A stretch of DNA of 41,333 nt, from positions 1-41,333 of IMG/VR virus record IMGVR_UViG_3300032280_000028, one strand, 5' to 3'. This stretch comes from a virus (Duplodnaviria > Caudoviricetes). Shown one piece after another: positions 1 through 41,333 of the stretch. The notes below the pieces were generated by a model. It saw only the letters and a program-made list of their open reading frames with translations. It was not told the DNA's origin and did no database searches. Within the stretch, counting starts at the first letter, position 1. Each line of letters starts with the position of its first letter. Both the position numbers and the translations under genes were made by a program.

Positions 1-123
1 AGTAGGTATTGCTGGTAAGAACTGGCATTGTCGCTTCGTTCATCTCAGCCAAAAGACTGTCGTACTCCTCAAAGGTATAGCCTGTTCCGTCTAACTCCGG
101 CAGAGCTTCGAGAAGTTTGGCTA
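1..123. repeat. 123-bp terminal direct repeat, left copy (circular assembly overlap)
   Basis: Identical to 41211-41333 (agtaggtattgctgg...agaagtttggcta); joining the ends restores one reading frame. Confidence 0.95.
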
Positions 124-418
124 ATTGCTCGTTATCGTAAGTGCCGTTATCGCTTGTTCGGTTATCTATGGCCACGATCTTTGCTGCGGTCGTATCATCT
201 ACATTGACATACACCACATCTATATCGGCCCAACCAAGAGACTGAGCAGCTTGATAAGTGTGATTGCCGGCTAGGATCTCTCCTGTGGCCTCATTGACTG
301 TGATTGGCTTGTATTGGCCGTAACGCTCAAGAGACTCGGCAATTAGATCTACATTACCTTTGCGCGGGTTATTTCTGTATAACTTTAGATCCGTCAGCGA
401 TACTTTCTTGATCTCCAC
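1..418 (-). CDS. ParB/Srx-like N-terminal domain protein, 5' part (continues across the join to 40954; 224 aa in total)
   Basis: Not in the ORF track. Manual translation from GTG at 418 after GGAGG: MEIKKVSLTDLKLYRNNPRKGNVDLIAESLERYGQYKPITVNEATGEILAGNHTYQAAQSLGW...DNRTSD, with ParB-N motifs NPR, G-x-x-x-PI, GNH. In frame with ORF 40954..41262. Confidence 0.85.
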   Translation of the reverse strand, partial: MEIKKVSLTDLKLYRNNPRKGNVDLIAESLERYGQYKPITVNEATGEILAGNHTYQAAQSLGWADIDVVYVNVDDTTAAKIVAIDNRTSDNGTYDNEQLAKLLEALPELDGTGYTFEEYDSLLAEMNEATMPVLTSNTY

Positions 419-9144: not shown

Positions 9145-9345
9145 ATGACCGCTCGAGTTCATATCAGTCTTTTTAATCTGATCGTAGAGTTAGAATCCGA
9201 TAACGCATATCCAGATCAAATGACGGATATGAGTAATCGCACTCTCAATCTATTCCAGAACGCTCTTTTGACCGCCAAAGAGACTGGTATAGATATCACC
9301 GAGATAGCTCTGCTTGAGTTAGACGAAGACGAAGACGATTACTGA
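9145..9345 (+). CDS. small acidic protein (66 aa), only convincing plus-strand gene
   Basis: Two AAGGAG motifs before ATG 9145; MTARVHISLFNLIVELESD...LELDEDEDDY; fills the gap between minus-strand genes. Confidence 0.7.
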   Translation: MTARVHISLFNLIVELESDNAYPDQMTDMSNRTLNLFQNALLTAKETGIDITEIALLELDEDEDDY

Positions 9346-9974
9346 TCTGCTTGGATCATAAACTGGCGTAACCAAGATCTTCCAGCAGCGTTGATCGCGT
9401 CTTGAGTCTTAGTTCGCTTTTTGTCTCCCCACGAATAGTTCTCCAATCCCTCCAGCGATAATTTTTTTCTAGTCTTCATTGGAGGCAGAGCTTCTAACGG
9501 GTGGTCTATTGCAAAGTCTCGATAGGCCAGTTGTTCTGATCGAGTGGGATATAGCGGTTGATCTGATCGCAAAGATCCGGAGGGATCTACCGCCCACCAA
9601 AGTAATCCATTTCGTTGATGCCATGTAATCGAACTAGGAGTGCAAGACATTTTTAACCTAGTCACTCCGCGTTCTAACACCGCATAATTTATCCAGATCT
9701 CCCAGATCCTCGAAGCGTATCCGTTTCCTTCTTGGCCTTGAATCGTGACTATCTCGTATAGGTTGGAATAGGTATCGCGGTTGTAAGTAGCGAAGATCAA
9801 AGAGACTACTTCCCCATTGACCTCCAGAGCCATTGGCGGAGTCTTCTCATAATTCTTGAATCGATACCAAAGAGAGTGAGCCGAGGATAGAAACTTCGTG
9901 TTTGTTCCTTTTGGCGAGGTCTTTACGATCTCCTCTACTTGAGTGAAATCTAAGAACTTAATTGCCTCGTTCAT
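9339..9974 (-). CDS. GNAT-fold acyltransferase
   Basis: Motif A-like NLYEIVTIQGQEGNGYASRI followed by RLKMSCTPSSITWHQRNG. Confidence 0.75.
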   Translation of the reverse strand: MNEAIKFLDFTQVEEIVKTSPKGTNTKFLSSAHSLWYRFKNYEKTPPMALEVNGEVVSLIFATYNRDTYSNLYEIVTIQGQEGNGYASRIWEIWINYAVLERGVTRLKMSCTPSSITWHQRNGLLWWAVDPSGSLRSDQPLYPTRSEQLAYRDFAIDHPLEALPPMKTRKKLSLEGLENYSWGDKKRTKTQDAINAAGRSWLRQFMIQADQ

Positions 9975-10670
9975 CTACCGATCTTTCTGAGCTTCGCTAA
10001 ATGTTCGGCCGGCTAGTCGCTTTCTAAATTGTGGAATATTGTTTTGAGGTATTCCGATCTTGTTGGAAGGCAAAGTGATAGCCAATAGATCTGAGTCAGA
10101 TTGATTGCTATATCCAGCGTCTAATATTGCGGCATCGTTAGGAAATACATCAGCGTGACGATCATTTTCCAAATCGACAAGGTGATCCTCCCGGCCTCCA
10201 AGAGAGTATAGATACCTAAAATTAGGAGGGCAATTAGGCTCAACTACTCTCTTAAACATTGAGACCTCTTTGGTATAGCAATAGAAAGTGACTTCCGGAG
10301 TTAGCAGAGCTATCTTGAGCCACAGGCGCAGGTATTCTTCCGAAAAAAAATCTCCTGAATCGTGTATGCGAATAAACTTTCCGCGCTTCTTTGGGTGCTG
10401 AACCTCAGCCAGCATTTGACCAAACCAGCCTTCGGGATCTTCTATTATGTATTCTAAGTTTTGAGTGTGCCGACCTTTTACATTACTGAAATTGTAAGTG
10501 CCGTTACGGGCATAGCAAACAGTCGCGCAAGCACCGGCGTTAGGACAAGTCTTTACATTTGTTCCATTAGATAATTTTACGGCAAGCGCGGGTATCGCCC
10601 AATTAAAGATCCCGTCAGGGCGAAGCTCTGAGTTTTGAGTTAGCAATTTCTCTGGTCTTAGTCCAGCCAT
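9975..10670 (-). CDS. GP88-like protein with a three-Cys motif
   Basis: TCPNAGACATVCYA, FIRIHDSGDFFS, FYCYTK, PPNF. Confidence 0.75.
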   Translation of the reverse strand: MAGLRPEKLLTQNSELRPDGIFNWAIPALAVKLSNGTNVKTCPNAGACATVCYARNGTYNFSNVKGRHTQNLEYIIEDPEGWFGQMLAEVQHPKKRGKFIRIHDSGDFFSEEYLRLWLKIALLTPEVTFYCYTKEVSMFKRVVEPNCPPNFRYLYSLGGREDHLVDLENDRHADVFPNDAAILDAGYSNQSDSDLLAITLPSNKIGIPQNNIPQFRKRLAGRTFSEAQKDR

Positions 10671-30078: not shown

Positions 30079-30222
30079 TTATTCGATCCATTCTATTGGC
30101 GATAGGAGCAAAGCCTCTTCTATTGTGGCCATAACTTTATCATTACTTGTAACTGGAGTGCCTCTTTTTAGGAACTCTGCGCCTTCGAGTATATCTCCGG
30201 CTATGCGCTCTTTGGCGCTCAT
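30079..30222 (-). CDS. 47-aa protein coupled to MuF-ART (candidate immunity protein)
   Basis: Manual: MSAKERIAGDILEGAEFLKRGTPVTSNDKVMATIEEALLLSPIEWIE; ATGA overlap with the MuF stop. Confidence 0.55.
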   Translation of the reverse strand: MSAKERIAGDILEGAEFLKRGTPVTSNDKVMATIEEALLLSPIEWIE

Positions 30223-31634
30223 TTAGTCACCGCAGATACATCGATAATTGTCATTCTAACTCCGTTTATTACTTCCTCGGTAATGTCTTCTACTTCAAAG
30301 ATCGTTCCACGGGCTAAGATCACTTCGTACTCAGAGCTTCCCGGAACTACCAAACCCTTAGCCCCGTAACTATCAATACGAAGAATAGTGGCTTGTTCTC
30401 CGGTGCGTATGCCTCCAACAACAGATCCGCTCGATTTAGAAAAACCCGCAGCAGTAATAGGATCAGTAGTAGTAGCTTGGAATAACTTAGAACTGAATTT
30501 GTCGCCTACTGTAAGTTGCGCCAAGCCGTCTGTCTGGCCTCTATACAAATACTCGATCTCGTCAAAGGCCAAAGATTGCATATTGTCGTCAAGTATGCCA
30601 ATAATCTCTTTTATCTCGCCTGTTGGAGATCCTCCTGAGAGAGATCCTTGAACACGGCGGTAATCTTCGCCTTGCCAGCGTTGAGCAGCGAAGCGCAAAT
30701 CATCAGAAGGCTCGCCAAACTCTCGTTGTAAATAATCGTAATCCCTTTTGCCTTGCTTGGTAGGAGACGCAAAATCTCCAACTTCGACAGGGATTTGTTC
30801 CGGTACTGCGGTAGGTGCTATATCTACTACGCCGTTTTGGTTCGGAGTCTCGCTCATATCCGGGATCACCGGGATCAAGGCGCAACGGCAATTAGGGTGT
30901 TGAGGAGGTTGAATAACTCCAGAAGGAAAAGGCGAACCGATATTTACCACCGCTCCGTCATTGAGAGCGCAGATATCGCAAGGGTTGATAGGTAGCCACT
31001 CTTGCTTTTCAAGGCCAAACTCTTTGTATGTCTCCATAGCAGCGTAAGAGGCGACTCGATTCGTCTCAGTAATGGCGATAGTTAGCGCTCGCGAAGCCGA
31101 TTGAACATGATTTTGGATCAGTCTCGAAGCTTGCCGGCTAGATAAACCGAGGGCAATAGATTCCCCAAGAGCAGATCCGATCTCGTTGTATGTCTCTTTT
31201 TCTAGCCCGCGTATTCGTGCCTTGCCCGCGTTGAGTAATCTTTCAAGAGCGCCCGGTGGCTTTACAAGCGCAGCAGCAACTTCGTCTCCCGGTGTCCAAT
31301 TATCCCAGTCGATATAGTCGGTATCTCCGGCCTTTTGCAGTTCCTTGGCCTTCTGTACGGCCTCTCGAGCTGCTAATTGACCCATTATGAAGGCCTCAGT
31401 CCATAAGCGAACAAGAGCCAAATAGACGGCATCCATTTCTAAATTTACATTGAGCATAGCCCAAGAGCGAGCGCGAGAACGATCTCTGGCAAGATTATCG
31501 GTCTTGATTGGCTGAGTCTCTTGGTATCGTTCAAAGACTTTTTTAGGATCTATTTGCTGACCAAGAGCAGCGCGGATCTTTGTCGCGTTCTTTGCTGCTA
31601 TGCGCCCCTCTGCCTTATGAGCGCCCCAGATCAT
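30219..31634 (-). CDS. MuF (SPP1 gp7-like) minor head protein with C-terminal ADP-ribosyltransferase domain
   Basis: IAITETNR, CDIC, PPQHPNCRC (MuF); YLYRG, FQATTTD, SEYEVILARG (R-S-E type ART). Confidence 0.85.
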   Translation of the reverse strand: MIWGAHKAEGRIAAKNATKIRAALGQQIDPKKVFERYQETQPIKTDNLARDRSRARSWAMLNVNLEMDAVYLALVRLWTEAFIMGQLAAREAVQKAKELQKAGDTDYIDWDNWTPGDEVAAALVKPPGALERLLNAGKARIRGLEKETYNEIGSALGESIALGLSSRQASRLIQNHVQSASRALTIAITETNRVASYAAMETYKEFGLEKQEWLPINPCDICALNDGAVVNIGSPFPSGVIQPPQHPNCRCALIPVIPDMSETPNQNGVVDIAPTAVPEQIPVEVGDFASPTKQGKRDYDYLQREFGEPSDDLRFAAQRWQGEDYRRVQGSLSGGSPTGEIKEIIGILDDNMQSLAFDEIEYLYRGQTDGLAQLTVGDKFSSKLFQATTTDPITAAGFSKSSGSVVGGIRTGEQATILRIDSYGAKGLVVPGSSEYEVILARGTIFEVEDITEEVINGVRMTIIDVSAVTK

Positions 31635-35735: not shown

Positions 35736-36079
35736 CGCGTGACCTGTGCGCTTACTATGGCTTGACCTTGAATAAGTCTTGTTACAACAGAAGTTGAAGA
35801 AGTTATCTCAAGATCATAAACATAATCTCCTTCGTCTATTGCTCCTGTTTGGACTGCCGTAGCTCTGATCGATACAAGGCCAGTTGCACTTGTGATGACA
35901 ATTCCACCATTTGCCGTTGTAAGCGTAAGAACCGCTGACGGAGAATTAGGTAGCGAACGCAACTGTAAGGCAGCAGTATAATTCGCAAGGTTGATAGGAG
36001 TACCGTTCGGATCTTCATAAGTAACATCGAGAAACCAGTCTGCGCCTTGATCGATAGTGACATTATATAAGCCCGCCAT
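35732..36079 (-). CDS. Ig-like anchor protein (BppU N-domain-like)
   Basis: IDQGAD, PINLANYTA..QLR, YVYDLEI, RLIQG. Confidence 0.7.
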   Translation of the reverse strand: MAGLYNVTIDQGADWFLDVTYEDPNGTPINLANYTAALQLRSLPNSPSAVLTLTTANGGIVITSATGLVSIRATAVQTGAIDEGDYVYDLEITSSTSVVTRLIQGQAIVSAQVTR

Positions 36080-37457
36080 TTGTCTCCTCTTTCGCCGGGG
36101 TAATCATAGCCGTTCCGCAACTAGAACAATGCGACATCGACTTAGGCATAGGTAATCCGCAACCCGGACACATATTAGCAAGCGCATTAAAGTAATTTGC
36201 AACATTTATTGTACCGAGAAGATCAGCAAAACCTTGCACCATTGCGTCAAGGCGATCTGGTGACTCTACTTCTTCCGGTGTCCAAGTAGCCATTTGATCT
36301 TCTAATTGTTCGTACTCTCCAACATGATGAATACGACCTTGCTCGTACATTGCTGAGATTGGCTCTGCTCGTAATCTCTTACCAATATGCGCTCGCACTT
36401 CTCGGATAGGCAAGCCCATACGGATCTGTTGGAGAACGGCCGTAACCATATCTCCGCCTTGATTTACTTCTACAAGGATTGAGTCAGCCTTGTGTTTGTC
36501 GAAGATCTCTACTGCTTTGGAAGCCCAATCAAGAGGCGATCCCCGGAAAGAGTAATCTCCAAGAACATATCCGTGACCGGCGGTGTCTGATCCGCAAACG
36601 ATAATTCCGGTCTCGTCACTATCTTTCGTATTCGTTACTGCGGGGTCAATAGAGACTACAACGCGAGACAGAGGCGGAGCTACTTGAACGCGGTTACGCT
36701 CAATCAAGCCCTTTGTCCATAGTGCGCCTTCCACATCTTCTAAGATCTCGCCGTATAACTCCTGCTTGCCGAGGCGTGTTCCGTTATATCGCGCTTGTAA
36801 TTCCATAAGCGCTGAGGGTGCTAAGTTCTTGGCGTTATCGAAGGTAGATCCTCGAGTGATAGCAACAGATCCGTCTATGCGGTTTGCAAGCGCTCGGATC
36901 AAGGGAACAGGCCGGGGTGTAGTAGTTACGATAATGCGAGGCTTTTCTCCGAGGCGTAATCCAAATTGCAACTGATCCCAAGCGTCTGAGTATCGGTACG
37001 CTGCTAACTCATCACACCAAGCGCCGTGATGCTGAGGGCCACGAAAGCGATCCGGCTGATCTGCTGAGAATAACTTTATGCGCGATCCGTTGGTGAGGAT
37101 AATCTCTCCAATAGATCTGTTCCACGATTTAAGCATTTTGTATCGGCGCAGGATAGAGATAACTCCTGACTCACCCTCAGCGCAAGTATCTCGAGCGTCA
37201 GAAAAAGTCGGAGCTACGATAGCCCAACGCGTCATTGGTTGGCGGATAGCCTCCCACGCAAGCCACTCTGCTGCGGTTCGAGTCTTCCCCGCTCCGCGAC
37301 CGGCCATATAAAGCCAGATATGCCAATCACCCTCCGGAGGTAATTGCTCGGATCTCGCTAGTTCCCGCCTCCACTTGTATCGTGCTGCTCTGATCCATTT
37401 GGTCGAGAAGCTTGATAATTCGTTCGATGTCTCCTTCAATGTCTCCACCGCCGTCAT
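36063..37457 (-). CDS. terL: terminase large subunit
   Basis: AGRGAGKT (Walker A), WCDELA (Walker B), VTTTP, SIDPA, SPDRLDA; GGAGGTGA SD before ATG 37457. Confidence 0.96.
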   Translation of the reverse strand: MTAVETLKETSNELSSFSTKWIRAARYKWRRELARSEQLPPEGDWHIWLYMAGRGAGKTRTAAEWLAWEAIRQPMTRWAIVAPTFSDARDTCAEGESGVISILRRYKMLKSWNRSIGEIILTNGSRIKLFSADQPDRFRGPQHHGAWCDELAAYRYSDAWDQLQFGLRLGEKPRIIVTTTPRPVPLIRALANRIDGSVAITRGSTFDNAKNLAPSALMELQARYNGTRLGKQELYGEILEDVEGALWTKGLIERNRVQVAPPLSRVVVSIDPAVTNTKDSDETGIIVCGSDTAGHGYVLGDYSFRGSPLDWASKAVEIFDKHKADSILVEVNQGGDMVTAVLQQIRMGLPIREVRAHIGKRLRAEPISAMYEQGRIHHVGEYEQLEDQMATWTPEEVESPDRLDAMVQGFADLLGTINVANYFNALANMCPGCGLPMPKSMSHCSSCGTAMITPAKEETNGGLI

Positions 37458-37818
37458 AGGTAATCACCTCCGCCTGTATTCGTTGTGGTGCGTCTAGTCC
37501 TAGAAGCTCTGCCCGCTTCCCGATAAGTTTGAGAACAAAATCAGCGCTCTTGTGATTGCCGTCTATTGCGTCTTTCCAATAAGCCCGTTGGAGGCGATCG
37601 AGACGATCTAACTCCAATTCTCGAAGCTCGTCAGTAGGTTGCTGGAGAGTGCGAACAATTGCCCTCTTGTAAGCCTTGTATGCCCCTCCTGCGTTTGCGT
37701 AACCGATAGCCCGGGCTATTCGTTCCCAAGTCTCACCGGTACGGCGTAATTCGACTACCGCCAATTCGCGATCAACTACCTCCGGTGTAGGAGTTTTCCC
37801 GTGTTTTTTTCCTGCCAT
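37327..37818 (-). CDS. terS: terminase small subunit
   Basis: HTH (AVVELRRTGETWERIARAIGY), ELDRLDRL, KRAELLGLDAP; directly upstream of terL. Confidence 0.85.
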   Translation of the reverse strand: MAGKKHGKTPTPEVVDRELAVVELRRTGETWERIARAIGYANAGGAYKAYKRAIVRTLQQPTDELRELELDRLDRLQRAYWKDAIDGNHKSADFVLKLIGKRAELLGLDAPQRIQAEVITYDGGGDIEGDIERIIKLLDQMDQSSTIQVEAGTSEIRAITSGG

Positions 37819-37832
37819 AGTTATACTGTAAC

Positions 37833-38372
37833 TCAGGAAAAGACAGATTGCGAAATGAGATTAGCGCCTTGCTCTGGAGTTAAGCCTCCCGGGATACAAG
37901 TAGCACTCCAACGCTCAGCAAGGTTCTTGTGTTTCGTAGCTCTGCCTTTGACCCAAGAGGCGTTCTGTTCTTTCCCTGTTGCCAAGGATCTTTCGTATCT
38001 TCTTAATTTGGCGATTTCTGGATCTGTGTCGAGATAGAACAAGTGGAACTCCCCATTGGATTTGCATAGGTTAAAGAACCGGTCATTGGCAAGGCGATCT
38101 CCTTCCCCGTACAAGATCTGGTACAGGTTACTTTCGGCTACCTTTGGCAACCAAGGCTCGATCGAGACTATCGCTGCGTTACCTAGTGTGTCTGTTCCTC
38201 CAAAGTTAGGCCTCAGCCAACCAAGAGATAGGGCTAAGCCGTTAGGCGTGTCGTGTTCTCGGTATTTGATTGGCTTCTCAAAGTGTTGCGGGTTTGACCA
38301 GTCACGAGTAAATGCCTCGGTCAGCGTAGTCTTTCCTGATCCCGGTTCTCCGATTAGATAGATTATCTTCAT
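37833..38372 (-). CDS. P-loop nucleotide kinase of the 5-hmU DNA kinase (5-HMUDK) type
   Basis: IGEPGSGKTT, FGGTDTL, EGDRL, Q..SWVKGRATK; in the aGPT-PPlase2 operon. Confidence 0.82.
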   Translation of the reverse strand: MKIIYLIGEPGSGKTTLTEAFTRDWSNPQHFEKPIKYREHDTPNGLALSLGWLRPNFGGTDTLGNAAIVSIEPWLPKVAESNLYQILYGEGDRLANDRFFNLCKSNGEFHLFYLDTDPEIAKLRRYERSLATGKEQNASWVKGRATKHKNLAERWSATCIPGGLTPEQGANLISQSVFS

Positions 38373-38399
38373 AGCGCCTCCTGTTGTAATGTAATCATC

Positions 38400-39212
38400 T
38401 TACAGACTTTCGATCCATTTCTCTGCGAGCGCCGGTGAGAGTCCGTACCCGCTTCTTGCTAATCCTGAGAAGTAGGCATTACGCTCGCCAAGCTTCGGAT
38501 AGATCGGTTTGCCTCCTGCTCCTTTGGCTCTCCAACCTAGCGACATTTCCCAATCCCCTGCCTGAACTATGCCTAACGCTATTGCGGTCATCAGTAATTC
38601 TTTGCCGTCATCTATCGCTCTATCCGCAGTCTTGGCAATAGAAGATCCAAGTCGAGTTACGCCATTGATTTGTGCTACCGATAAAGATTTATACGGGCGC
38701 AGGTGATGAACTCGGTAGGGTGCGTAATCTAATTTAGCCGTGTGCGAGATCCAAGTGACTCCAGCGAACAAAGTTACTTCACGCGCTAAGTGTTTCCCGT
38801 ATCCGCCGGTGCAATTAAGTATCGCGTCAGCCTCAATTTCAGATCCGTCACTCAACTCTACGCTTGTGCGGTCAATTCCTATTACGCGCTCGGTGATATC
38901 CGGTGATACCAATGGCAAGATAGGATCTACCAGCCACCAATCTTTTTGCGCTTTGATCTCCGGGCTGCGCCAATTTGATACATAAGCCTCTTTTGATCCT
39001 GCTGCTCCCCAAGCGCTATACCACTCCCAAGATCTTTCAAGATCTGACCGCTCAGATTTATCAAACCAAGTAGGGCGAATAGTCGCCAGCGCAGATCGTG
39101 ACGCAGCTTGTTCAGGAGCGTGGTCAATAAGAGTGACCTCCCACCCCTTTGCCCGGGCTATACGCGTGGCTGATGATCCGGCAATACCTGCGCCAATAAC
39201 TATGAGTTTCAT
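38400..39212 (-). CDS. FAD-dependent oxidoreductase, DAO/glycine oxidase-like (270 aa)
   Basis: Start MKLIVIGAGIAG at 39212 (ATGA overlap); AASRSALA; C-terminal SGLARSGYGLSPALA. Confidence 0.85.
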   Translation of the reverse strand: MKLIVIGAGIAGSSATRIARAKGWEVTLIDHAPEQAASRSALATIRPTWFDKSERSDLERSWEWYSAWGAAGSKEAYVSNWRSPEIKAQKDWWLVDPILPLVSPDITERVIGIDRTSVELSDGSEIEADAILNCTGGYGKHLAREVTLFAGVTWISHTAKLDYAPYRVHHLRPYKSLSVAQINGVTRLGSSIAKTADRAIDDGKELLMTAIALGIVQAGDWEMSLGWRAKGAGGKPIYPKLGERNAYFSGLARSGYGLSPALAEKWIESL

Positions 39213-40087
39213 CTGACTGCGATCTCTCTTGTATTTTTGTAGATAGATTTGCGGGTTTTGTCGATCCCTTCCCACCCGTTGAGTTCTCCCAAATAATTGT
39301 GAGGCAAAGACTCGTATCGAGCTTTGAACGCCCAATCAGTTAGATCCGAAGGAACGCGTAATAGTTGTTCTTGCATTTCGTCTATGTCTATGCCGACATA
39401 ATAACGGCCTCGAGTCATTGCGTAGAAATCGCATAACGAAGTCTCAGCGGTCTCCATACTTACTTGCGAAGCTCTGCCGGTCAGGTACTCGACTACTTTG
39501 AGGCTTAGATCATCTAATTGTGCGATCTCAGCAGGTGAGTTACCTAGTGGCAAACCCGGAAAAAACAGACCTAAGCCCTTGCGTGGCCCACTCGAGTTCG
39601 CATTACCCATATCAGGCACTTCGAGATTAAAGCCGTGACTCTTGAACAAGATCTCTGCCGTTTTATACGCTGCCCACCGGCCGTTGCCATACACAGTCGC
39701 TAACTCATCGTTAAGAGTCTTCCAGTTCGCTACCGGATCTTCTGACGAACAGGCACTATCTAGCCAAGCGCCGAGGCCTCCGTGTTTCTCAATCTTGGCA
39801 CAGAGAGAGTCAAGGTGCTGAGCGAATTTAAGAGTAGATCTATGCGCCCGGCGAGGTTGCGCAATTGGAAGCTTTAGAGTCTCTTGATCCGGAACAGTAG
39901 GAGTTGGATAAAGGCTGAACGCTTTTAGCGCTGACCCCATGTGATAGTAGCCAACGAATAGGAAAGTAAGCCACAATCCTTTGTCTCGATCTAGTTGATC
40001 TGCGAACCATTTTAGAACGGGATACGCAGGGTCCATATCGCGTGATTGAGTTTGCGCTTCGTGAAAGTAGGCATAGTCGCTATTCAA
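39209..40087 (-). CDS. aGPT-PPlase clade 2 / amino acid:DNA transferase (292 aa)
   Basis: DMDPAY, GNGRWAAYKTAE, SSGPRKGL, ETSLCDF...GRYYVGIDIDE; TTG start at 40087. Confidence 0.82.
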   Translation of the reverse strand: MNSDYAYFHEAQTQSRDMDPAYPVLKWFADQLDRDKGLWLTFLFVGYYHMGSALKAFSLYPTPTVPDQETLKLPIAQPRRAHRSTLKFAQHLDSLCAKIEKHGGLGAWLDSACSSEDPVANWKTLNDELATVYGNGRWAAYKTAEILFKSHGFNLEVPDMGNANSSGPRKGLGLFFPGLPLGNSPAEIAQLDDLSLKVVEYLTGRASQVSMETAETSLCDFYAMTRGRYYVGIDIDEMQEQLLRVPSDLTDWAFKARYESLPHNYLGELNGWEGIDKTRKSIYKNTREIAVR

Positions 40088-40967
40088 CGGCCTTGACCTT
40101 GCCGATAGTCGGCATATCGATCTCACCCTTGAGCGCTCGAGCCATATTATCTTCGCGCTTGGTACGAGACTCTTTTGCCTTCGCGGTCTCTACTGCATAA
40201 GTGAAACAATCTTTCATTCCACGCAACGCGTAATACACGATTGAATATCGATATGCGTCTTTGGTTTTTGGCGACATAGGAGTTACGCCATGAACATATT
40301 TATATCCTGCAAAGAAAGTCACCCAGCCGTCACGACAAGAACAAGTCAGATTGTACTCAGGCAAAGTTAGATAACCGCCGGACATATCTCTACGGATCAC
40401 CGGCATCGCAGACCAAGTAGCAAAGTTAAAGCCGTCTCGGTGATAAGGAAGTGTTGAAGATTTATTGACTACTCCAGAAGTCCAAAGTGCGTCATCGGTC
40501 ATGCGCCACTCGTCAGATAGTCCAGCGTCAGCAAGGTTCTTTTTGTCGTGTTCGTATAGATCCGGAGCGAACTCTTTATAGAGCTTTGCAAACTTTTCTG
40601 CAAAAGCGATCAATACCGCGTGTTCGCTTGGTTGTTCTAGCGCGAGGGTAGTAGGTCTGCAACTCTCTCTGCGTTGGAATATCTTGCGTGGAGCCATTCC
40701 GAAAGTTCTTGATTTATTTTTAAGTCCAGTTGATTGCCGGATCGTTTCACCATAATTGATATTAAGAACTGCTGCCCGTAGGAGATTGACTTCTTGCTCC
40801 ATTGGAAAATAAACAAATAAGACTTCATCTGTGTCTTCGTCAATCCAGATCCCTTCCTTATTACAATTCGGTTCATACTCCGGAACAGTAGTACCTACAA
40901 GCGCGGTTGCTTCTTCTTCGGTCATTACGCGCTTGACTTTATAGACAGGTAACTCAGATAGGTTCAT
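40080..40967 (-). CDS. TET/JBP-family 2OG-Fe(II) dioxygenase (295 aa)
   Basis: WTSGVVN...YHRDGFN (HxD), GGYLTLPEY, VHGVTP (distal His), RYSIVYY (2OG-binding Arg); start MNLSEL at 40967. Confidence 0.88.
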   Translation of the reverse strand: MNLSELPVYKVKRVMTEEEATALVGTTVPEYEPNCNKEGIWIDEDTDEVLFVYFPMEQEVNLLRAAVLNINYGETIRQSTGLKNKSRTFGMAPRKIFQRRESCRPTTLALEQPSEHAVLIAFAEKFAKLYKEFAPDLYEHDKKNLADAGLSDEWRMTDDALWTSGVVNKSSTLPYHRDGFNFATWSAMPVIRRDMSGGYLTLPEYNLTCSCRDGWVTFFAGYKYVHGVTPMSPKTKDAYRYSIVYYALRGMKDCFTYAVETAKAKESRTKREDNMARALKGEIDMPTIGKVKAVE

Positions 40968-41333
40968 TCTCTGGCCTTTTCTCTCCAACGGCATCTTCTA
41001 CAAGACTCAATATTGCATCAGAATTGCTTACAAGATTGTTAGCAGCGCGATACTGGATTAGTTTATCAATCAACCATACATAAGTGTCGTTGTCGTAATC
41101 CATCATCAGCATACGAGTAGCCTTTTGCGCGTAGCGTTCGGCGTAATCTCCGAGTGTGGGGATAAAATGAACTCCGCTTTGTCCGGTCTCGCCTACTCCT
41201 ACTGATTCGAAGTAGGTATTGCTGGTAAGAACTGGCATTGTCGCTTCGTTCATCTCAGCCAAAAGACTGTCGTACTCCTCAAAGGTATAGCCTGTTCCGT
41301 CTAACTCCGGCAGAGCTTCGAGAAGTTTGGCTA
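40954..41333 (-). CDS. ParB-like protein, 3' part (continuation of 1..418)
   Basis: Open frame runs through the terminal repeat; stop at 40954 overlaps the TET/JBP start. Confidence 0.8.
   Translation of the reverse strand, partial: AKLLEALPELDGTGYTFEEYDSLLAEMNEATMPVLTSNTYFESVGVGETGQSGVHFIPTLGDYAERYAQKATRMLMMDYDNDTYVWLIDKLIQYRAANNLVSNSDAILSLVEDAVGEKRPENEPI
41211..41333. repeat. 123-bp terminal direct repeat, right copy
   Basis: Identical to 1-123. Confidence 0.95.

Follow-up and report, generated by a model that had tools for sequence, protein, structure and literature searches.

A predicted thymine amination gene set, from ParB-like protein and TET/JBP dioxygenase to kinase, in a complete tailed-phage genome

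Gene content of the locus

The 41,333 nucleotides (nt) of IMG/VR record IMGVR_UViG_3300032280_000028 (Duplodnaviria; Caudoviricetes), analysed over their full length and referred to here as the window, carried five linked minus-strand genes encoding a ParB-like protein, a TET/JBP dioxygenase, an amino acid:DNA transferase, a flavin oxidase and a P-loop kinase (Table 1). With a possible distant sixth gene for a GNAT acetyltransferase, they made up a predicted thymine amination set. An earlier inspection of the sequence (the original prediction) had recognised the four genes from dioxygenase to kinase and proposed that 5-hydroxymethyluracil (5-hmU) is made in situ from thymine and converted on finished DNA to 5-aminomethyluracil (5-aminomethyl-U). 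These four open reading frames (ORFs) were intact, and their tight coupling was reproduced exactly on recheck, with an 8-nt overlap of TET and transferase, a 4-nt overlap of transferase and flavin gene, and a 27-nt gap before the kinase. All four genes were real, but the ParB-like fifth gene upstream and the distant GNAT gene had been overlooked.

The ParB-like gene was split by the contig ends and encoded 224 amino acids (aa) when read round the circle; intact 224-aa orthologues with 86% identity occurred in loci L006-L008. PF02195 covered residues 2-86 with no helix-turn-helix (HTH) match, and the C-terminal part, judged by eye, resembled that of the ParBs tested by O'Toole et al. (2026, PMC13229309). 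A ParB gene stood upstream of TET in 73 of 80 TET loci, the remaining 7 ending at the TET start. As this gene had been missed, the four-gene co-expression proposed with the original prediction would probably fail. Tandem pairs of ParB-like genes preceded the cassette in L057, L058, L060-L062, L064, L075, L154 and L155.

The window represented a complete phage genome, as the original prediction had supposed, with a completeness class of 100% and a 123-nt terminal repeat (41211-41333 being a copy of 1-123). Pfam and PHROG scans identified tail, portal, terminase and WhiB proteins. The host is presumably actinobacterial, since the closest cultured relatives of the cassette genes infect actinobacteria.

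Table 1. Features of the predicted gene set and its surroundings in the window.
Feature	Position	Strand	Details
ParB-like activator, 5' part	1..418	-	GTG start at 418, GGAGG upstream; PF02195 E 1.6e-7; PHROG ParB-like E 1.4e-47; runs on through 123-nt terminal repeat
ParB-like activator, 3' part (linker and C-terminal domain)	40954..41333	-	phrog_6392 E 2.2e-8; 14-nt overlap of stop with TET start
TET/JBP 5-methylpyrimidine dioxygenase, short-insert actinophage branch	40080..40967	-	295 aa; PF12851 E 1.4e-10
Amino acid:DNA transferase (aGPT-Pplase2/ADDT), likely glycine:DNA transferase	39209..40087	-	292 aa, TTG start; PF18724 E 1.8e-19
FAD-dependent oxidase, PaMx11 gp47-like	38400..39212	-	270 aa; PF01266 E 2.2e-13
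P-loop kinase (Ploopntkinase3), predicted 5-hmU DNA kinase	37833..38372	-	179 aa; PF18751 E 7.2e-25
Probable terminase small subunit (HTH protein, name from position)	37327..37818	-	14 nt past kinase
Large terminase	ORF 36063-37457, true start uncertain	-	comes after small subunit
GNAT acetyltransferase outside cassette, candidate 5-aminomethyl-U acetyltransferase	9339..9974	-	ESM Atlas, GNAT fold, neighbourhoods of relatives
GP88-family protein with cysteine-rich motif	9975-10670	-	PF17338 E 1.6e-50; abuts GNAT, zero gap

Conserved residues of the cassette enzymes

Family and structure searches of the kind suggested with the original prediction placed TET/JBP in PF12851, matched the transferase to PF18724 and to a profile of PaMx11 gp46 and M6 gp51, and gave PaMx11 gp47 as the best match of the flavin family profile among solved structures. 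The dioxygenase kept the iron ligands H176-x-D178 and H226, the 2-oxoglutarate residue R240 and C254, all invariant in alignments with long-insert relatives, and extended 41 residues beyond C254. Thymine oxidation was first seen with TET89 (Burke et al., PMC8256090) and has been shown for phage TET/JBP enzymes in vivo and in vitro, one subclass being ParB-dependent, with oxidation reaching ~35% and a preference for NTG (O'Toole et al. 2026, PMC13229309); the earlier statement that characterised phage TETs act on 5-methylcytosine (5mC) with a partner C5 methyltransferase is therefore out of date. According to the same report, the clade C1 ParB-dependent T-dioxygenases (5mYOX176/ParB176 and others) also have an upstream ParB without a DNA-binding domain, a C-terminal TET extension, no adjacent C5 methyltransferase, and neighbours of the same families (PF18751 kinase and PF18724 transferase), and T-dioxygenase loci are linked to glutamine amidotransferases (GATases), PF18751 kinases and transferases. 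The system here, compared with the tested sequences by eye, would work like those of clade C1; we did not file it as a member because it lacked their long variable insert. The clade C1 work tested the oxidation step only. The TET here belongs to a short-insert actinophage branch of 176 cluster representatives at E<=1e-30. The terms "FAD", "DAO" and "oxidoreductase" were absent from the text of 12 supplements of PMC13229309, figures aside.

The kinase aligned with M6 gp54 and PaMx11 gp49 (hhalign probability 97.4%, E 1.4e-11, 128 columns) at 19% identity to each, with G8, K14, D61, E90 and G91 of the Walker A, conserved Asp and EG motifs invariant. Its PHROG label, "terminase small subunit", was rejected on Pfam and residue evidence, and the label "queuine tRNA-ribosyltransferase" for TET was set aside on the same kind of evidence. 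The M6 gp54 and PaMx11 gp49 records bear the same terminase label, and many GenBank/RefSeq actinophage records give these two names to the kinase and the TET family, respectively; both look like propagated mis-annotations.

The transferase matched PaMx11 gp46 and M6 gp51 with a hhalign probability of 98.1%, and a single-sequence search of the PDB gave no match. An alignment of 30 transferases showed that it retained the catalytic C219, the metal ligands E215/T216 and the glycine-binding D19/W138/K142, together with D234 and E237; equivalents of gp46 Y51, D262 and E265 were kept. In gp46, the glycine-binding trio is D24/W146/K150, and the metal ligands E243 and T244 bind O4 of thymine (PMC11472151). 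The trio was shared by all 16 flavin-cassette transferases, by the two characterised glycine transferases and by 5/6 transferases whose cassettes had no recognised tailoring partner; none of six from GATase, pyridoxal phosphate (PLP)-like or hydroxylase cassettes had it. Because a tree of the 30 sequences (FastTree, midpoint root) did not unite the flavin-linked transferases in one clade, we drew no argument for co-evolution from it.

For the flavin family profile, the best PDB match was PaMx11 gp47 (E 3e-5), which also had the top TM-score among the matches listed (8z2o; 0.79/0.75) for a model with a pLDDT (predicted local distance difference test) score of 94.1. The gp47 pocket residues W51, F52 and Y180 and the carboxylate-binding R242 were kept as W49, F50, Y174 and R228, and K268 was replaced by R253.

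Cassette neighbourhoods in relatives

We retained 80 TET loci of 112 found, and collected 52 loci with the flavin family, 26 of them with full flanks. In every one of those 26, ParB, TET, transferase and kinase all lay no more than 3.5 kb away, and a thymidylate-synthase-like gene stood near the flavin gene in 0/52 loci. In-cassette GNAT genes, completing the PaMx11 set, occurred in 16/52 flavin loci. The TET that accompanied the transferase-flavin-kinase module was of the short-insert kind in some loci and of the long-insert kind in others (L142-L149, L151, L153-L156), which suggests that both kinds supply the same base.

In most relatives the cassette lay directly upstream of the terminase genes. 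The slot before terminase in the 80 TET loci held transferase, flavin gene and kinase in 27 cases (some cut), transferase and kinase in 9, a second transferase with a PLP-like gene and kinase in 7, kinase only in 7, glycosyltransferase-like arrangements in 14 and 15, and another in 1; the PLP-like and most glycosyltransferase-like labels were assigned by eye, one tested protein alone matching TAGT.

Among cultured phages, mycobacteriophage Phelemich had the same order of ParB, TET, transferase, oxidoreductase and kinase followed by terminase, with proteins 30-45% identical and no GNAT, and Reprobate shared TET, transferase and flavin genes with this phage; in both mycobacteriophages these are among genes 1-5. 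Rhodococcus phage Tonitrus, in which a five-gene system has been named (PMC11955845), and Gordonia phage LittleMunchkin had cassettes without the flavin gene. Behind their kinases lay a 293-aa protein without a Pfam match (L002:3761-4642 and L003:3045-3926; 45% identical), a candidate tailoring enzyme of flavin-less cassettes. No published base analysis of DNA from these four phages was found in a search that mostly left subscription journals outside.

Two other arrangements were observed. In L153-L156, where a long-insert TET lay downstream, the flavin cassettes had gained an amidoligase-like gene (PF12224) as an insertion, together with a gene resembling low-molecular-weight phosphatases (PF01451); they may extend the amine further. 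An Asp/Asn beta-hydroxylase-like gene (PF05118; L075:5181-6266) was flanked by a divergent transferase and the kinase.

Genes absent from the genome

Six-frame family searches of the whole genome, run alongside 14 control genomes, gave no match at E<=0.1 to PF00145, PF00303, PF01555, PF00383, PF00476 or PF18723, the first five of which matched in 9-14 of the 14 controls. C5 methyltransferase, N6/N4 methyltransferase, thymidylate synthase/dUMP hydroxymethylase, dCMP deaminase, family-A polymerase and aGPT-Pplase1 were thus absent from the complete genome, and none of these families turned up when 8 and 66 ORFs were scanned with Pfam and 67 with PHROG. The claim that the phage has no dUMP hydroxymethylase, dCMP deaminase, polymerase (sought here as family A) or methyltransferase was therefore borne out. 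Nor did these searches and scans reveal a diverged hydroxymethylase or methyltransferase among the hypothetical ORFs, a finding that the original prediction had named as contrary to it; hidden genes for a deaminase or a family-A polymerase were likewise looked for and not found, and the largest unexplained ORF was the GNAT. Of the 80 TET records, the longest 47, 14 of them near-complete, were further used to count genome content: PF00303 matched in 0/47 of these IMG/VR relatives, whereas the PaMx11 control matched.

The phage thus differs from those that make 5-hmU before replication (M6, ViI and PaMx11), whose dUMP hydroxymethylase, dCMP deaminase and own polymerase were not found here, and from phages with 5mC dioxygenases (clades A/B, Burke 2021), whose partner C5 cytosine methyltransferase was likewise not found.

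Predicted route to 5-aminomethyl-U

Hypermodification of thymine on finished DNA is very probably the function of this locus, its chemical steps being predicted from homology. More specifically, we postulate, with a probability of roughly 0.6, that the ParB-TET-transferase-flavin-kinase cassette turns a subset of thymines in replicated phage DNA into 5-aminomethyl-U, which the distant GNAT may then acetylate. Host enzymes would first replicate ordinary DNA, since no nucleotide-level modification or polymerase genes were found in the phage. The ParB-like protein would then activate TET/JBP to convert T to 5-hmU at preferred contexts, as in the ParB-dependent T-dioxygenases (PMC13229309), and the P-loop kinase, as a homologue of M6 gp54, would convert 5-hmU to 5-phosphomethyl-U. 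Given the conserved gp46 residues, the transferase would replace the phosphate by glycine through a covalent intermediate at Cys219, yielding N-alpha-glycinyl-T, and the flavin enzyme, acting like gp47, would oxidatively cleave the glycine N-C bond to leave 5-aminomethyl-U and glyoxylate. The GNAT could finally produce 5-acetylaminomethyl-U, the PaMx11 end product, a step that we rate a little below even odds. Residues, fold comparison and neighbourhoods thus support the route from T via 5-hmU in situ to 5-aminomethyl-U in the original prediction, which had missed ParB and the GNAT that may alter the end product.

Several observations weigh against this reading. The variable insert of the TET was much shorter than in the long-insert relatives L111-L113, to which it was 22-23% identical, and a short pattern for the long-insert motif had no match among the 150 nearest TET cluster representatives. 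In PMC13229309, the variable-insert (vi) domain was essential in the T-dioxygenases tested, the Dataset S11 constructs examined all look long-insert by eye, and many tested ParB-TET pairs gave <5% or no 5-hmU. The kinase, predicted as a 5-hmU DNA kinase, proved homologous to M6 gp54 and PaMx11 gp49 but matched PF18751 and not PF18748 (HMUDK_HMUD1), the family of the characterised M6 gp54; this carries little weight because PaMx11 gp49 also misses PF18748 at E<=0.001. Kinase relatives occurred in 390 phage records, against 103 for TET. In the proposed phosphate pocket of the transferase, P78 stood for gp46 E92 and F44 for Y47, and, among the phosphate-pocket and DNA-wedge positions, A and S aligned with gp46 H95 and F173, leaving these two without equivalents; in the flavin enzyme, S176 replaced gp47 Q182 and K230 replaced Y244. 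Foldseek, when ranked by E-value, placed CmiS2 above gp47; CmiS2 also removes an N-carboxymethyl group. The GNAT was found in none of the 14 near-complete relatives, five of them with a flavin cassette, nor in Phelemich, and as an orthologue of PaMx11 gp48 it was not supported (profile probability 0.5%).

These pocket changes, together with low identity to gp46 (17%) and gp47 (25%), both over small alignments, and the near-gp47 scores of sarcosine, proline and iminodiacetate oxidase folds, would fit a system with the same thymine entry through TET, kinase and transferase and with another amine donor or flavin reaction, leading to a base other than 5-aminomethyl-U. The amidoligase-like gene added in four of the 52 flavin loci points the same way. 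Against it, the equivalents of gp46 W146 and K150 follow flavin cassettes and are lost beside a GATase or PLP-like partner, the carboxylate-binding R242 equivalent is kept, and the in-cassette GNATs imply a free amine, so that we regard a different end base as unlikely. The same transferase changes might indicate a cassette that is inactive or decaying in this phage, and in E. coli several of the ParB-TET pairs tested showed no activity (PMC13229309); however, all frames were intact and coupled, and orthologues with 84-89% identity share the changes, which makes decay highly improbable.

A further alternative concerns the substrate, as the TET could oxidise host-made 5mC and the downstream enzymes decorate the resulting 5-hydroxymethylcytosine. 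Tested T-dioxygenases also oxidise 5mC in vitro (PMC13229309), and thymine as the substrate of the short-insert branch is a prediction. C5 methyltransferases occurred in 5/47 relatives, including 4/14 near-complete ones; in two relatives with flavin cassettes (G024 and G030) a partial match lay ~2 kb upstream of TET, which counts slightly towards this alternative and against oxidation of thymine. It is nevertheless very unlikely: no methyltransferase was found in this complete genome or in 10/14 near-complete relatives, the ligands equivalent to gp46 E243 and T244 are kept, and characterised transferases of this family act on 5-phosphomethyl-U (PMC8989533).

Site avoidance and likely purpose

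The likely purpose of the modification is partial protection from host nucleases at packaging. In the genome, ACGT was absent (0 vs 195 expected on both strands), GAGCTC occurred 0 times vs 26 expected and GGATCC 2 times vs 44, GATC was enriched (780 vs 558 expected), and many palindromic hexamers were missing. The continued purge of T-containing palindromes fits partial rather than blanket modification, without being proof of it. Close relatives avoided other words (AGCT, CCGG, GGCC), suggesting different host restriction systems. Deriving the modified sequence context from word counts was abandoned, avoidance patterns in loci of at least 7 kb being independent of cassette type.

The persistence of this purge, the placement of the cassette, which in most loci immediately precedes the terminase genes, and a regulatory role raised in PMC13229309 would also suit a sparse packaging or regulatory mark, written by the same chemistry and read by the terminase, in place of anti-restriction armour. 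We think it improbable that this is the main purpose. At least six interchangeable modules fill the slot between TET and terminase in the 80 loci, which is what an arms-race trait would be expected to show; NcoI is blocked once 5-hmU is phosphorylated (PMC8989533); and site avoidance can predate the cassette.

Distant GNAT gene and its neighbour

The 211-aa protein had no meaningful Pfam or PHROG match and was identified as a GNAT by ESM Atlas (0.99 to GNAT clusters) and by the GNAT fold of its model (pLDDT 94.5); PF00583 was found in 17 of 21 aligned family members and not in this one. It had no match in cultured phages. Of 25 loci with a relative, 19 placed the GNAT directly behind a class II GATase, and within 3-kb flanks these 19 held TET in 18 cases, transferase in 15 and the flavin gene in none; the other six were close relatives of this phage, with no cassette around the GNAT. 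It was present in 4/47 TET records, all four with a flavin cassette (4/18 vs 0/29, Fisher p 0.017), a hint only, as these represent about two independent lineages. The GNAT is probably related to the pathway; because of its presence in only 4/47 records, and in neither the near-complete relatives nor Phelemich, it is optional, and its role a hint. From these neighbourhoods, acetylation of 5-aminomethyl-U by the GNAT is possible, though we would not favour it.

GATase-bearing cassettes occurred in L096-L114, in the order TET, GATase, GNAT, transferase and kinase, with transferases that lacked the glycine-binding Trp and Lys, and by eye many came after a DnaB-like helicase gene. They represent a candidate ammonia route to 5-aminomethyl-U.

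The adjacent GP88-family protein had relatives beside the cassette or terminase in L037, L045-L047, L075, L152 and L157. It showed no similarity to M6 gp53 and was dropped as a radical SAM partner of that kind; as a core part it was also rejected, occurring in 9/50 records across cassette types and missing from the four GNAT-bearing relatives.

Relation to known systems and significance

The concept is not new: it was predicted in print by Lee et al. (2022), ParB-dependent oxidation was shown by O'Toole et al. (2026), and Phelemich has the same gene order. The steps of kinase, transferase, flavin enzyme and acetylation were characterised by Lee et al. (PMC8989533), who for some contigs (Fig. 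2, sequences 22-25) made the same inference, as a prediction alone, that TET_JBP replaces dUMP hydroxymethylase and supplies 5-hmU in DNA. With the PaMx11 gp46-gp49 pathway to 5-aminomethyl-dU and 5-acetylaminomethyl-dU (PMC8989533, PMC11472151) our phage shares transferase, flavin oxidase, kinase and GNAT, with catalytic and substrate-binding residues largely kept. PaMx11 differs in that a thymidylate-synthase-like enzyme supplies its 5-hmU ahead of replication, and in having its own polymerase and an aGPT-Pplase1 paralogue, where this phage has the TET/ParB pair; the GNAT here is of a different subfamily and lies ~9 kb from the ParB start. The activities of the short-insert TET branch and of the PF18751 kinase, and the chain as a whole, are predictions. 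Our literature search, with subscription journals mostly outside it, agreed with the original prediction in finding no biochemical characterisation of this combination and no reconstitution of a TET-started chain to 5-aminomethyl-U.

If the predicted route is correct, dependence on the host polymerase does not keep a small phage from having a hypermodified genome, all steps taking place on finished DNA, and thymine dioxygenase activity extends to the large short-insert branch. A working set would allow primary amines to be introduced at chosen thymines of ordinary DNA, as a handle for labelling and sequencing. The concept itself would not surprise specialists, and the chain is directly testable because cultured mycobacteriophages carry the same five genes. 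Speculatively, the short-insert branch, widespread in actinophages, might drive a fully post-replicative, host-polymerase-compatible 5-aminomethyl-U route that is finished here to 5-acetylaminomethyl-U by a GNAT borrowed from unrelated phages and their TET-GATase cassettes. Flavin cleavage of glycine and glutamine-derived ammonia would then be two interchangeable ways of reaching one amine, and the five or six genes would make a portable kit that writes amines into any DNA at chosen contexts; we hold this wider picture doubtful.

Elsewhere in the window, a MuF-like minor head protein (30219-31634, minus strand) had a weak C-terminal match to an ADP-ribosyltransferase family (PF03496, E 0.007), below the cut-off.

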